Source: Escherichia coli
Lineage (GTDB): Bacteria; Pseudomonadota; Gammaproteobacteria; Enterobacterales; Enterobacteriaceae
NCBI RefSeq assembly: GCF_046105845.1
Contig: NZ_CP151004.1
DNA length: 64,000 bases
Reading direction: 5' to 3' (one strand)
In this document: positions 9,061 through 60,948 of the stretch, piece by piece
Position numbering within the stretch: the first letter of the stretch is position 1
How the letters are laid out: every line of letters starts with the position of its first letter
Program-made: the position numbers and the translations under genes
The notes under the pieces: generated by a model
Told to the model about the DNA's origin: nothing
Database searches by the model: none
What the model saw: the letters and a program-made list of their open reading frames with translations, nothing else

Positions 9061-10023
9061 GTGATGATCAAAACGCGTTTTTCTCGCTGGCTAACGTTTT
9101 TTACGTTCGCCGCTGCCGTGGTGCTGGCGCTGCCGGCAAAAGCCAACACCTGGCCGCTGCCGCCAGCGGGCAGTCGTCTGGTTGGCGAAAATAAATTTCA
9201 TGTGGTGGAAAATGACGGTGGTTCTCTGGAAGCCATCGCCAAAAAATATAACGTCGGCTTTCTCGCTCTGTTACAGGCTAACCCCGGCGTTGATCCTTAC
9301 GTACCGCGCGCGGGTAGCGTGTTAACGATCCCGTTGCAAACCCTACTTCCAGACGCGCCGCGCGAAGGCATTGTGATCAACATTGCGGAGCTGCGTCTCT
9401 ATTACTACCCGCCGGGTAAAAATTCGGTAACCGTGTATCCCATCGGCATTGGTCAGTTGGGTGGTGACACGCTGACACCGACAATGGTGACCACCGTTTC
9501 AGACAAACGTGCAAACCCAACCTGGACGCCAACGGCAAACATCCGCGCCCGTTATAAAGCACAGGGAATTGAGTTGCCTGCGGTAGTTCCGGCTGGACCG
9601 GATAACCCAATGGGCCATCATGCGATTCGTCTGGCGGCCTATGGCGGTGTTTATTTGCTTCACGGTACGAACGCCGATTTCGGCATTGGCATGCGGGTAA
9701 GTTCTGGCTGTATTCGTCTGCGTGATGACGATATCAAAACACTCTTTAGCCAGGTCACCCCTGGTACCAAAGTGAATATCATCAACACCCCGATTAAAGT
9801 CTCTGCCGAACCAAACGGTGCGCGTCTGGTTGAAGTACATCAACCGCTGTCAGAGAAGATTGATGACGATCCGCAACTGCTGCCAATTACACTGAATAGC
9901 GCAATGCAATCATTTAAAGATGCAGCACAAACTGACGCTGAAGTGATGCAACATGTGATGGATGTCCGTTCCGGGATGCCGGTGGATGTCCGCCGTCATC
10001 AAGTGAGCCCACAAACTCTGTAA
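9061..10023 (+). CDS. ldtC: L,D-transpeptidase LdtC (YcfS)
   Basis: Signal peptide followed by YkuD-type domain (HGT...SSGCIRL catalytic Cys motif). Start placed at GTG 9061 to give MMIKTRFSRW; ORF track starts one codon earlier at TTG. Confidence 0.88.
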   Translation: MMIKTRFSRWLTFFTFAAAVVLALPAKANTWPLPPAGSRLVGENKFHVVENDGGSLEAIAKKYNVGFLALLQANPGVDPYVPRAGSVLTIPLQTLLPDAPREGIVINIAELRLYYYPPGKNSVTVYPIGIGQLGGDTLTPTMVTTVSDKRANPTWTPTANIRARYKAQGIELPAVVPAGPDNPMGHHAIRLAAYGGVYLLHGTNADFGIGMRVSSGCIRLRDDDIKTLFSQVTPGTKVNIINTPIKVSAEPNGARLVEVHQPLSEKIDDDPQLLPITLNSAMQSFKDAAQTDAEVMQHVMDVRSGMPVDVRRHQVSPQTL

Positions 10024-10029
10024 ATCCTG

Positions 10030-10073
10030 GATAAAAAAATCCCCGCGACACGGCATGTCGCGGGGAAAAAAAT
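10030..10073. terminator. Bidirectional intrinsic terminator between convergent ldtC and bhsA
   Basis: Hairpin ccccgcgacacggcatgtcgcgggg flanked by A-run upstream and A-run downstream (T-run on the opposite strand). Confidence 0.75.
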
Positions 10074-10105
10074 CAGCAGTAGCAGGCATTAATGAGGGTT
10101 AATGC

Positions 10106-10363
10106 TTATTTATAAATTACTGCTGTTCCATGGAGGGTATTCGGACCGGTTACAGAAGTAATACGGAAAGATTTTGCGCCCATCTCATCCGCTTTTTGCG
10201 CCAGCTGCTCTTCCAGCGATCCCAGATTTGTCCCCGCGTTAGCACTGATAGTACCGACTTTTTGTTGGCCTTCTGGCGTTGACTGAACTTCGACAGCCGC
10301 AAAGCTGGCAAATGACATTGAGCTTAAAATCGCCGCAGCGATGAGGGTTTTTACGTTTTTCAT
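10106..10363 (-). CDS. bhsA: Multiple stress resistance / biofilm protein BhsA (YcfR), YhcN family
   Basis: 85 aa secreted small protein MKNVKTLIAAAILSSMSFASFA...; divergent from comR. Confidence 0.93.
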   Translation of the reverse strand: MKNVKTLIAAAILSSMSFASFAAVEVQSTPEGQQKVGTISANAGTNLGSLEEQLAQKADEMGAKSFRITSVTGPNTLHGTAVIYK

Positions 10364-10603
10364 AATAGTGGCCTTATGCAGATGAATGACGTCGCAAGCA
10401 ATTACTTAACGATCGATAACTAAATGATAGATGTGATCTGGATCACATACAAGATATTTTTTATAACAATCATTAATTAATTTAAAAATCTTTAAATTTC
10501 AGTTAAATAGAAAGCAATTATTTTTATGGTTTGTGGACTGGTGAACGGAGGTGATTATTTTTATAATAACCTTTCATTCACAGTCACCAGGTACAACGGC
10601 ATC

Positions 10604-11236
10604 ATGGCAACTGACTCAACACAATGTGTAAAAAAAAGCCGTGGCCGCCCAAAAGTGTTCGACAGGGATGCCGCGCTTGATAAGGCCATGAAATTGTTCT
10701 GGCAGCACGGTTATGAAGCGACTTCTCTTGCGGACCTCGTCGAAGCGACCGGAGCCAAAGCGCCCACGCTATACGCGGAATTTACCAACAAAGAGGGGTT
10801 ATTTCGCGCCGTACTCGACCGCTATATCGATCGTTTTGCCGCTAAGCATGAAGCACAGCTGTTTTGTGAAGAGAAAAGCGTGGAGTCTGCGCTGGCTGAC
10901 TATTTTGCTGCCATCGCCAACTGCTTTACCAGCAAAGACACCCCGGCAGGCTGCTTCATGATCAACAACTGCACCACCCTCTCCCCGGATTCCGGAGATA
11001 TCGGCAATACGCTGAAATCACGCCATGCGATGCAAGAGCGCACTTTGCAGCAGTTTTTATGTCAACGACAAGCGCGCGGGGAAATCCCGACCCACTGTGA
11101 CGTGACGCATCTGGCAGAATTCCTTAATTGTATTATTCAGGGGATGTCGATCAGCGCACGCGAAGGTGCATCGCTGGAAAAACTGATGCAGATTGCCCGA
11201 ACGACTTTGCGTTTATGGCCCGAACTGGTGAAATAA
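10604..11236 (+). CDS. comR: TetR-family transcriptional repressor ComR (YcfQ)
   Basis: ORF track 236 aa; recognised ComR begins MATDSTQCVKKSRGRPKVFDRD (210 aa) at ATG 10604; TetR-type N-terminal helix-turn-helix. Confidence 0.9.
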   Translation: MATDSTQCVKKSRGRPKVFDRDAALDKAMKLFWQHGYEATSLADLVEATGAKAPTLYAEFTNKEGLFRAVLDRYIDRFAAKHEAQLFCEEKSVESALADYFAAIANCFTSKDTPAGCFMINNCTTLSPDSGDIGNTLKSRHAMQERTLQQFLCQRQARGEIPTHCDVTHLAEFLNCIIQGMSISAREGASLEKLMQIARTTLRLWPELVK

Positions 11237-11240
11237 GGCG

Positions 11241-11280
11241 CAAAAAAAAGCCCCTCAGCCTGAGCGAATGAGGGGCTAAA
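11241..11280. terminator. Bidirectional intrinsic terminator between convergent comR and ycfJ
   Basis: Hairpin gcccctcagcctgagcgaatgaggggc preceded by aaaaaaaa. Confidence 0.7.
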
Positions 11281-11298
11281 TTGCAGAGTACAGCCTTG

Positions 11299-11838
11299 TT
11301 ATACTTTGTTATTCAAAATCAGTTGCCCGTTGCCATCTAACGGGATCTGCGTACCCGGATCGCGGTCCATGCGGATTTTGCCCTGCTGATCGCCAATCTT
11401 ATAGGTCACATCATAACCGAGCATTTTTTCTGATTTGTCATACACCGTTTTACAACGCTGTTGCGTAGTCGTGTAAGTATCGCTTTCCTGGAGAGAGCCC
11501 TGGATCTGGTTACCGGCATAGCCACCTCCCAGCGCCCCCACAACAGTGGCGACATCTTTACCGCGACCACCGCCAAACTGATGCCCTATCACGCCGCCAG
11601 CAACAGCGCCGAGCACCGACCCGGTAATGCGATTTTCATCCTGCACCGGTCGACGATGGGTCACTGTGACGTTGCGACACTCCTGACGCGGTGTTTTAAC
11701 CGTTTCCTTGATTGGGGTTGCAGAAACAACCTGAGCGTATTGCGGGCCACGTTCAAACACGTTCAGACTGGCCACTGCCGCTACGCCCAACGCAGCTGCG
11801 ACACCAATCCCGATACCCGCCAACATTGATTTATTCAC
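11299..11838 (-). CDS. ycfJ: Uncharacterised membrane protein YcfJ (glycine-zipper Rick_17kDa-like)
   Basis: Gly-rich glycine-zipper region (GAVAGGVIGHQFGGGRGK); start placed at GTG 11838 (MNKSMLAG, 179 aa), preceded by GGAGG Shine-Dalgarno. Confidence 0.85.
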   Translation of the reverse strand: MNKSMLAGIGIGVAAALGVAAVASLNVFERGPQYAQVVSATPIKETVKTPRQECRNVTVTHRRPVQDENRITGSVLGAVAGGVIGHQFGGGRGKDVATVVGALGGGYAGNQIQGSLQESDTYTTTQQRCKTVYDKSEKMLGYDVTYKIGDQQGKIRMDRDPGTQIPLDGNGQLILNNKV

Positions 11839-13369: not shown

Positions 13370-13643
13370 CGTGACCCCCTTAAATTTATTAACCAATTGT
13401 TAATTAATGGTTATTAACATAGCTCTTAATTAACAACAGGTTACAGCAATGAAAATGTTCTTCGCTAATGAGAATAACATGAATGGTGCATTGGTCATAC
13501 CAAAATTGATGTTAATCAAGTTTTGTTGCTGAAAAGATAGGCGACTTTACCGGGTGAGATCAAAAAACAGAGTTTGTTGTTTATTATTTGAGCTGATTTG
13601 TGAGAATGATATAGAGTGAGGTGTGTATGGAGGGCGTTCGGTA

Positions 13644-57936: not shown

Positions 57937-58182
57937 ATGCGAATTGAAGTCACCATAGCGAAAACTTCTCCATTGCCAGCTGGGGCTATTGACGCCCTGG
58001 CTGGCGAACTTTCCCGCCGTATTCAGTATGCGTTTCCTGATAATGAAGGCCACGTATCGGTACGTTATGCCGCAGCGAATAATTTATCGGTTATTGGCGC
58101 GACAAAAGAAGATAAACAGCGCATTAGCGAAATTCTCCAGGAAACGTGGGAAAGCGCCGATGACTGGTTTGTCAGCGAATAA
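57937..58182 (+). CDS. dinI: DNA damage-inducible protein I
   Basis: Recognised 81 aa MRIEVTIAKTSPLPAGAIDALAGELSRRIQYAF...; ORF track entry 57805..58182 is over-extended upstream. Confidence 0.95.
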   Translation: MRIEVTIAKTSPLPAGAIDALAGELSRRIQYAFPDNEGHVSVRYAAANNLSVIGATKEDKQRISEILQETWESADDWFVSE

Positions 58183-58203
58183 TATGCAGTGATTTTTGTT
58201 TTT

Positions 58204-58226
58204 GCCGGGTCGCCCCGGCTTTTTTA
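58204..58226 (+). terminator. Intrinsic terminator after dinI
   Basis: Hairpin gccgggtcgccccggc followed by tttttt. Confidence 0.8.
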
Positions 58227-58471
58227 TTTTACTTACGAATTTCGAGTACAAAATTTCTACACTTCCTCAAAATAATTGCACAATATGCTAAAAAAATATG
58301 AATGACATGCTGTTTTATTGTTCATATAAATCTTAAAAGCAAAAATTTATCTGTTCCCCCCTTTAAAAATTCGGTGAATACCCTTACTTATTGGTATACT
58401 GAAGTTGCTTCAGATAAAAACGCATTGAACCTCGAATAACGTTGTCTAGTAACACGAATTAGGGGGCCATG

Positions 58472-58726
58472 ATGGAAAAAAATAATGAAGTCATTCAGAC
58501 TCATCCGCTCGTAGGGTGGGACATCAGCACCGTTGATAGCTATGATGCGCTGATGTTGCGTTTGCACTACCAGACCCCAAATAAGTCCGAGCAGGAAGGG
58601 ACTGAAGTTGGTCAGACGCTCTGGTTAACCACTGATGTTGCCAGACAATTTATTTCGATATTAGAAGCAGGAATCGCCAAAATTGAATCCGGTGATTTCC
58701 CGGTAAACGAGTATCGGCGTCATTAA
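58472..58726 (+). CDS. bssS: Biofilm regulator BssS (YceP)
   Basis: MEKNNEVIQTHPLVGWDISTVDSYDALMLRLHYQ, 84 aa from second ATG (the ORF track starts one Met earlier at 58469). Confidence 0.93.
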   Translation: MEKNNEVIQTHPLVGWDISTVDSYDALMLRLHYQTPNKSEQEGTEVGQTLWLTTDVARQFISILEAGIAKIESGDFPVNEYRRH

Positions 58727-60006: not shown

Positions 60007-60120
60007 ATGCGTCGGCTGTTGCACTATCTCATCAATAATATTCGCGAGCATCTGATGCTTTATCTTTTTCTCTGGGGATTGTTGGCAATTATGGATCTGA
60101 TCTATGTGTTTTATTTTTAG
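60007..60120 (+). CDS. yceO: Small hydrophobic protein YceO
   Basis: ATG 60007 preceded by AGGAG Shine-Dalgarno (59996-60000); translates [37 protein letters not shown] (37 aa). An in-frame ATG at 59980 would give 46 aa but lies inside the solA terminator stem. Confidence 0.7.
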
Positions 60121-60381
60121 TTTTTCCACACTGACATAAACTGACAAATATTTAATCTCCCTTTCATTTAGCGTGAAAAATTGAATGAGATTATTCCTGC
60201 TTCAACAGCACTCACCAGACATCTCTGATGCTGAACCCACTAAACTTATGAAGATTCTTTCATTATTAATTCAAAATTATTGAAATAAAAATAAATATCA
60301 TTCAATTTGTTATTTTTGTGTTGCAATTCATTCTCCGACACGCCATTTTCTTTCTCTCGCAAATTCGTTTTGGATGCACTT

Positions 60382-60948
60382 ATGTCATTCACAAATACCC
60401 CTGAACGCTATGGTGTTATATCTGCGGCCTTCCATTGGCTAAGCGCAATTATTGTCTACGGCATGTTTGCTTTAGGTCTGTGGATGGTCACGCTCAGTTA
60501 TTACGATGGCTGGTATCACAAAGCACCCGAACTGCATAAAAGCATCGGTATTTTGTTAATGATGGGGCTGGTTATTCGCGTTCTGTGGCGCGTCATATCT
60601 CCACCGCCGGGTCCGCTGCAAAGTTATTCGCCCATGACTCGTCTTGGCGCAAAGGCTGGACATCTCGCATTGTACTTATTGCTGTTTGCCATCGGCATCA
60701 GCGGCTATCTGATCTCAACTGCCGATGGTAAACCGATCAGCGTTTTTGGCTGGTTTGACGTCCCCGCGACCCTCGCCGACGCTGGCGCACAGGCTGACTT
60801 TGCCGGTGCCCTGCATTTTTGGCTCGCGTGGAGCGTCGTAGTACTGTCCGTTATGCACGGATTTATGGCCCTGAAGCATCATTTCATCGATAAAGACGAC
60901 ACTCTGAAGCGCATGCTGGGAAAGTCGTCATCTGACTATGGAGTATAA
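60382..60948 (+). CDS. yceJ: Cytochrome b561 homolog YceJ
   Basis: ORF track over-extended; recognised start MSFTNTPERYGVISAAFHWLSAIIVYGMFALG (188 aa) at 60382; His-containing transmembrane helices. Confidence 0.93.
   Translation: MSFTNTPERYGVISAAFHWLSAIIVYGMFALGLWMVTLSYYDGWYHKAPELHKSIGILLMMGLVIRVLWRVISPPPGPLQSYSPMTRLGAKAGHLALYLLLFAIGISGYLISTADGKPISVFGWFDVPATLADAGAQADFAGALHFWLAWSVVVLSVMHGFMALKHHFIDKDDTLKRMLGKSSSDYGV

Follow-up and report, generated by a model that had tools for sequence, protein, structure and literature searches.

A base-level map of the divergent bhsA-comR control region of Escherichia coli and a candidate operator for the ComR repressor

The closest described system is the ComR-ComC/BhsA pair itself, in which a copper-released repressor and its target are encoded divergently (Mermod et al. 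2012, Biometals 25:33). As that work is summarized in PMC10141476, the site at which purified ComR binds in the bhsA (comC) promoter is some 60 bp upstream of the gene, and copper releases the repressor. The locus analysed here has the same genes, the same gap and the same layout, and measured against the accessible part of that literature it is the same in kind; the addition is a base-level candidate operator. Few E. coli genes are induced by stress as strongly and as broadly as bhsA, which responds to copper, chlorine, mercury, hypothiocyanite and biofilm conditions and is a member of seven iModulons, whereas ComR is poorly characterised. A wider circle of relatives is formed by the TetR type I systems CifR-morB/cif, QacR-qacA and AcrR-acrAB, which share with this locus the divergent regulator and target and a palindrome over the target promoter and start; this likeness is one of layout. 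Two features set ComR apart from them: its reported effector is copper rather than an organic ligand, and what it controls is neither a pump nor an enzyme but a small DUF1471 outer-membrane protein. The closest solved structure to ComR is that of Pseudomonas aeruginosa CifR (E = 3e-32), and CifR has been reported to use two binding sites. Finally, the bhsA promoter is a model for primer-dependent (nanoRNA, UpA) initiation, to which the present locus is alike in having an identical promoter sequence and start.

The window, that is, the whole stretch of DNA that was analysed, comprises 64,000 nucleotides. A first-pass annotation made from its letters alone had described a strongly AT-rich gap of 240 bp with short A/T tracts between divergent bhsA and comR. 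The ends of the open reading frames and the E. coli annotation place this gap at exactly 10364-10603, and its GC content is 30.8% compared with 51.6% across the window. It contains four homopolymer runs of at least 5 nt (A or T tracts of 5-6 nt at 10457-62, 10484-88, 10521-25 and 10558-62), and 0.26% of the 240-nt windows are as AT-rich, at four places near 10.3, 13.4, 58.2 and 60.1 kb. The other spots with a 240-nt GC content of 32% or less are at about 13370-13620, just upstream of an ndh-like ORF ending at 13396, 58170-58500 and 60050-60390. The features of the gap and its flanking genes are collected in Table 1. The interval is the shared control region of bhsA and comR, ordinary and already characterised; beyond a single operator, it comprises a mapped sigma-70 promoter, a CRP site, an A-tract and the promoter of comR.

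Table 1. Features of the bhsA-comR intergenic region and of the genes that flank it (positions in the window)
Feature	Position	Strand	Remarks
bhsA (ycfR/comC) CDS	10106-10363	-	85 aa; DUF1471/YdgH_BhsA-like outer-membrane stress protein; ORF list and E. coli annotation
Putative bhsA Shine-Dalgarno AAGG	10372-10375	-	9 nt upstream of the ATG
bhsA 5′ UTR block AUUCAUCUGC (mRNA)	10378-10387	-	Near-invariant in 74 regions; just upstream of the Shine-Dalgarno
O1 TTAACGATCGATAA	10406-10419		Candidate primary ComR operator; -2 to +12 of the bhsA promoter
bhsA transcription start (A)	10417	-	T at -1 (10418); published 5′ RNA-seq
bhsA -10 TATCAT	10424-10429	-	Placed relative to the mapped start
CRP site TGTGATCTGGATCACA	10432-10447		Exact consensus; full palindrome 10431-10448
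bhsA -35 TTGTAT	10447-10452	-	17-bp spacing to the -10; alignment of 74 regions
A-tract TAAAAAATA	10455-10463	-	At -38 to -46; resembles the proximal UP-element subsite
O2 ATAACAATCATTAA	10463-10476		Weaker copy, 11/14; -46 to -59, centre -52.5; 57 bp from O1
AT-only palindrome AATTTAAA-N4-TTTAAATT	10479-10498		Partly conserved, patchy
Putative weak -35-like comR element	10538-10544	+	Near-invariant CTGG; TGGTGA 17 bp before the -10; assigned by spacing
comR proximal promoter	10554-10567	+	T-rich tract and perfect -10 TATAAT at 10562-10567, 37 nt before the ATG
comR leader CAGGTACAACGGCAT	10589-10603	+	Directly before the start codon; mostly conserved across genera
comR (ycfQ)	10604-11236	+	210 aa; ATG at 10604; TetR-family repressor; PF00440 and PF16925

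The locus belongs to the core of the species. A 1.3-kb query around the gap had a match, covering ldtC, bhsA, comR and ycfJ, in all but one of the 5426 complete E. coli genomes, and annotated bhsA and comR were found in the same proportion (5425/5426). Identity to the 10000-11300 segment reached at least 99% in 177 of the 5425 genomes, most others lying at 95-99%; the small number of such close matches points either to a less common E. coli lineage or to an unusually polymorphic locus. Between the convergent ldtC and bhsA, a GC-rich hairpin with a 12-bp stem and T-runs on both sides (10040-10066) looks like a bidirectional intrinsic terminator.

Beyond the species, a scan with ComR that took one genome per species gave 80 loci with 68-97% protein identity. 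Divergent bhsA was present in 73 of them, and in all 73 the intergenic length was 238-250 bp. When these 73 regions were aligned together with that of the window (74 regions in total), conservation appeared in discrete near-invariant blocks that coincide with the mapped promoter and protein sites. Could the AT-richness then be generic intergenic composition, or the mark of H-NS silencing of a horizontally acquired segment? A genomic SELEX table flags the region as H-NS-associated, as well as bound by the RpoD holoenzyme, and the GC content of the gap agrees with such a reading. However, the locus is core in E. coli and syntenic across Enterobacteriaceae with a gap of nearly constant length, and its conservation is confined to blocks at mapped sites. 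The H-NS flag is compatible with the AT-richness and leaves the block conservation unexplained, so that we regard this explanation as very improbable. In Kosakonia sacchari and K. arachidis the complete comR-bhsA pair is present twice, on different contigs or at different positions (L061/L077 and L062/L079, respectively), and O1, the CRP site and the TATAAT block are retained at both copies in either species.

The bhsA promoter was first inferred from conservation and then compared with published 5′ RNA-seq, which gives its sequence from -40 to +4 as atatcttgtatgtgatccagatcacatctatcatttagttAtcg and its start 54 nt upstream of the gene (PMC4488433 supplement). This sequence is identical to the minus strand of the window and 10417 minus 10363 equals 54; in consequence, the bhsA start is experimentally fixed at 10417, which corresponds to the MG1655 start 1169019. 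As expected of a sigma-70 promoter, TTGTAT-17-TATCAT lies about 7 nt upstream of the mapped start, and TTGAC[G/C]-17/18-TAT[C/G/T]AT is found in most of the 74 orthologous regions. The -10 is mostly TAT[C/G/T]AT with few variants, and the -35 of most other genera is TTGACG or TTGACC, located one base further upstream; it is weaker in Escherichia. A generic sigma-70 scan missed this promoter because the E. coli -35 matches the consensus at three of six positions only. That scan gave two weak hits, plus-strand TTCACA-17-CATCAT and minus-strand TTCACC-17-AATAAT, which were at chance level and neither of which fits the mapped start; the latter is the sequence-only bhsA promoter prediction of Shimada 2014. 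TATAAA on the minus strand (10465-10460) was also rejected as a -10, as it gives no T-A start and conflicts with the 5′ RNA-seq.

Two further elements accompany this promoter. The core of the A-tract, TTTTTTATAA (10457-10466), is near-invariant in the 74 regions and positions 10455-10456 are poorly conserved. The proximal subsite of UP elements has the consensus AAAAAARNR, which TAAAAAATA matches at 8 of 9 positions; a role as UP element is thereby predicted from the sequence. The second element is the start itself, a known site of UpA primer-dependent initiation (PMC4488433). The work on primer-dependent initiation at bhsA concerns the chemistry at -1/+1 and not operators, and the overlap between O1 and the primer-binding positions is not discussed in its accessible parts.

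The first-pass annotation had found no clear palindrome in the gap by eye. This does not hold, since there is a perfect 8+2+8 inverted repeat at 10431-10448 and a 13/14 palindrome at 10406-10419. The former, ATGTGATC-TG-GATCACAT, is the sharpest inverted repeat of the gap and its only perfect one, and includes an exact match to TGTGA-N6-TCACA that is unique in the 64 kb (0.06 expected). ChIP-seq in ETEC H10407 identified this same 16-mer as the CRP target ycfQ/bhsA (PMC4287617), and the accessible part of PMC5521740 cites Zhang et al. 2007 for a CRP gel shift (EMSA) with the region upstream of ycfR. Across the 74 regions the half-sites TGTGATC and TCAC are conserved and the spacer varies freely; fixed half-sites with a variable spacer are the CRP pattern. 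The most obvious palindrome is the CRP site and not the ComR operator.

The CRP 16-mer extends from -15 to -30, wholly inside the spacer between the bhsA -35 and -10. Its centre at -22.5 is an unusual position, to be compared with the activating positions -41.5 or -61.5. The site resembles the CRP repressor sites of core promoters in its TGTGA-N6-TCACA sequence, its in-vivo occupancy and the classification of CRP as a repressor at bhsA. Indeed, a network study based on EcoCyc/RegulonDB lists CRP as a repressor of bhsA within a feed-forward-loop class (PMC6121374). The position at -22.5 would fit repression by promoter occlusion, the repressor label coming from that database-derived classification. 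Class I or class II activation by CRP (from starts at 10378 or 10398) was rejected, as no usable -10 is available and the mapped start excludes it. The site was found in the sampled Enterobacteriaceae only, the Yersiniaceae and Erwiniaceae versions of the promoter being without it.

Three GATC (Dam) sites fall within 34 bp (10411-10444) and form the tightest such triple in the window; the O1 core has one of them and the CRP site the other two. O2 carries a GATC in most other genera, which is lost in E. coli (AATC). Dam methylation could affect protein binding at these positions.

Where, then, would ComR bind? The first-pass annotation had proposed motif discovery across orthologous bhsA-comR gaps, and this uncovers a conserved inverted repeat, TTAACGATCG[A/T]TAA, with a second copy (O1 and O2 in Table 1). 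O1 departs from the perfect palindrome TTAACGATCGTTAA at a single one of the 14 positions, its dyad being centred on CGATCG (10410-10415), and is embedded in an extended imperfect dyad at 10399-10426. It is the sole match with one mismatch in the 64 kb; with three mismatches there are 10 matches in the window, 3 of them inside the gap, compared with 2.6 expected for the whole window. O1 is placed upstream of bhsA at 43-56 bp from the ATG (36-63 bp when the extended dyad is taken), in agreement with the reported "at 60 bp upstream" (Mermod 2012 via PMC10141476), a figure that is second-hand and imprecise. As in TetR operators, the inverted repeat overlaps the start of the adjacent divergent target gene. 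Among the 74 regions, O1 scores 11-13/14 against TTAACGATCGTTAA in all and 12-13/14 in 72. O2 scores 9-13/14 in 59, the script having been unable to place it in the other 15. With at most two mismatches allowed, TTAACGATCGTTAA has 100 matches in the intergenic regions, compared with 0 in the 381 kb that flank them. The O1/O2 motif co-occurs with a ComR of conserved DNA-binding domain and is missing from the flanks, which is likewise expected of a TetR operator. In other genera O2 is of the ATAACGATCGTTAA type and its central GATC is gone from the E. coli copy, which also overlaps a plus-strand TATAAC (10462-10467). O2 is thus degenerate in E. coli and may be non-functional in this genome.

Eight more distant loci, from Rahnella, Rouxiella, Chimaeribacter, two Serratia, Erwinia, Pantoea and Paramixta, were reached through a search with representative proteins and look-ups of contigs by exact sequence. 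Their ComR homologues are about 45-55% identical to that of the window. These homologues hardly differ in the DNA-binding domain (residues 11-69, including T49-F60), and therefore the operator should be the same. All eight loci present the complete arrangement of O2 with A-tract, -35, spacer, -10, T-A start and O1, with 55-57 bp between O1 and O2, and the perfect palindrome TTAACGATCGTTAA itself is present in Pantoea. TGTGA...TCACA was found in the promoter spacer of none of the eight. Tandem bhsA paralogues that have an upstream region of their own (in Rahnella, Rouxiella, Chimaeribacter and Serratia proteamaculans) also have one O1/O2 pair each, located about 50-80 and 105-140 nt from the ATG. 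The TTAACGATCGTTAA-type pair, as judged by sequence, travels with comR and bhsA across three enterobacterial families, and the CRP site is an addition in the sampled Enterobacteriaceae.

Several side observations were made at these loci. Outside Enterobacteriaceae, comR adjoins a tandem array of 2-4 BhsA-like genes (L081, L083, L084, L086-L088 and L090). A gene with an MPAB_Lcp_cat domain is located just downstream of comR in Rahnella (L081), Rouxiella (L083), Chimaeribacter (L084) and Serratia (L089). In an assembly from a sequencing run (L082, 2200-2500), a homologue 48% identical to ComR faces a divergent small gene of the AraC/MarA type in place of bhsA, and the intergenic region contains the related dyads TTAGTTAACGTTCATTAA and TTATTAACAATGATTAATAA.

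Since O1 and O2 are kept in 73 + 8 loci, the ComR DNA-binding domain is near-invariant and the distant promoter spacers are without a CRP site, O1/O2 is the best candidate for the ComR operator. We consider it probable that O1, with O2, plays this role. Together with the published ComR binding, a conserved inverted repeat in the gap bears out the expectation of the first-pass annotation that the operator through which ComR represses bhsA lies here.

Two other assignments have to be weighed. According to the first, the perfect palindrome at 10431-10448 would be the ComR operator, alone or shared with CRP, and CGATCG would be conserved for another reason. It is the only perfect inverted repeat of the interval, is conserved in 74 of 74 Enterobacteriaceae regions and lies inside the core promoter, a frequent binding place of TetR-type repressors. 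However, its sequence is an exact CRP consensus, CRP occupies it in vivo according to published work and its conservation follows the CRP pattern, and at 69-84 bp upstream of the ATG it is further away than the second-hand figure of about 60 bp. It is missing from the promoter spacer of 8/8 distant loci despite the near-invariant ComR DNA-binding domain, and we find this assignment improbable.

According to the second, O1 and O2 would be bound by a regulator other than ComR or be kept for promoter mechanics, with the ComR site elsewhere in the AT-rich region. The membership of bhsA in seven iModulons and its response to many stresses imply several regulators, the start is used for UpA-primed initiation and the T-tract beside O2 resembles an UP element. 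In this sense, part of the conservation of O1 could derive from the demands of primer-dependent initiation or of the initial transcribed sequence, and another factor could bind O1. Primer-dependent initiation nevertheless requires a few bases around the start and not a 14-bp dyad, and the same dyad recurs at -52.5, where there is no initiation. The confinement of the motif to these intergenic regions, its co-occurrence with a ComR homologue of near-invariant recognition helix and the location of O1 over the start, a classical position for a repressor operator, speak against it as well. We hold this second assignment to be unlikely, and retain O1/O2 as the candidate ComR operator.

What remains at the locus when bhsA is lost? 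Four species without bhsA, namely Enterobacter sp. ENT03, Enterobacter sp. Bisph1, Pseudescherichia vulneris and Escherichia sp. ESNIH1 (L058, L064, L072 and L073, at about 2400-2500), have lost O1 and the CRP site and keep the comR TATAAT block. The persistence of TATAAT next to comR assigns it to the comR promoter, and the two sites that were lost, O1 and the CRP site, belong to bhsA. In all four, comR directly follows ldtC, and the comR promoter reads TATAATGAT[C/T]GTTCAA, nearer to the operator consensus than in E. coli; this sequence suggests that comR may be autoregulated in these species.

Reports on comR autoregulation in E. coli are in conflict. The accessible part of Mermod 2012 reports no autoregulation of comR, whereas promoter-fusion and tunable-TF assays (PPTP-seq, PMC10505187) detected negative autoregulation. 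Under copper, comR rises two-fold compared with 11-14-fold for bhsA. The comR TATAAT is invariant in 74/74 regions, and comR would be transcribed rightward from it, with a possible distal start at the TATAAC inside O2. In the short intergenic regions of Yersiniaceae (174-216 bp) the O2/A-tract element reads TTTTTATAATGATCGTTAA on the comR strand, a TATAAT followed at once by the operator, and autoregulation is therefore predicted there. In Enterobacteriaceae there are two copies of the O2/A-tract element at a distance of about 100 bp. The operator half is retained in the one nearer to bhsA (10457-10476); the one nearer to comR (10554-10570) retains TATAAT, and its operator half scores mostly 8-9/14 (8/14 in the window). 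The comR promoter may thus be a duplicated O2/TATAA module with a decayed operator half. Such decay at the comR TATAAT could reconcile the conflicting reports, a distal comR start at the TATAAC in O2 would explain the weak autoregulation reported, and the modest two-fold rise under copper would fit the duplicated-module model.

From these comparisons a broader proposition can be drawn, for and against which we see the balance as about even. The two-operator ComR module, with O1 over the start and O2 at -52.5, 55-57 bp apart, would be the ancestral signature of comR-adjacent bhsA-family promoters in the sampled Enterobacterales. Enterobacteriaceae would later have inserted the CRP site and duplicated O2/TATAA, giving comR a largely ComR-independent promoter. 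This reading, too, would explain the conflict between the autoregulation reports.

With respect to the repressor itself, C117 is present in all and C176 in nearly all of the aligned ComR homologues, and we speculate that these cysteines take part in sensing copper or thiol-reactive stress. An in-frame upstream ATG at 10526, which would give a ComR of 236 aa, was rejected as the start, the added stretch being poorly conserved and interrupted by indels. A large protein cluster (P0002, 2930 members) uses this upstream ATG; the extension is probably a gene-calling artefact. The comR leader CAGGTACAACGGCAT has no good Shine-Dalgarno at the usual distance.

At the post-transcriptional level, the bhsA Shine-Dalgarno is partly conserved, with a per-base identity to the window of about 0.6, 0.9, 0.6 and 0.8 in 74 sequences, and the near-invariant block AUUCAUCUGC of the 5′ UTR might be an sRNA-pairing or translational element. 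Folding of the bhsA leader gave no significant secondary structure compared with shuffled sequence (z = 0.31), and Rfam returned no family match inside 10364-10603 even at E up to 1. The sub-threshold Rfam hits lie on flanking terminators only, several sRNA hits falling on the 10040-10066 hairpin. An RNA element is unlikely, given the unstructured leader and the lack of an Rfam match.

A model of the control of bhsA can be proposed. bhsA is read leftward from the sigma-70 promoter, starting at 10417 with a leader of 54 nt. When bound to the spacer site, cAMP-CRP would exclude RNA polymerase and repress bhsA. The O1 palindrome covers the start, with the weaker O2 just upstream of the A-tract, and ComR dimers on O1, aided by O2, would block initiation. 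Copper or other thiol-reactive stress would release ComR.

ComR repression, CRP binding and the bhsA start had already been published, and what our analysis adds, by sequence comparison, is a base-level map and a candidate operator; in the accessible part of the ComR/bhsA literature we did not find a base-level assignment of O1/O2 stated. The known picture is unchanged and the result is mainly a tidy confirmation. A concrete operator sequence is a handle for testing what ComR senses, for settling whether comR is autoregulated and for finding further ComR targets, and the map of how operator, CRP site and primer-dependent start overlap adds to it.
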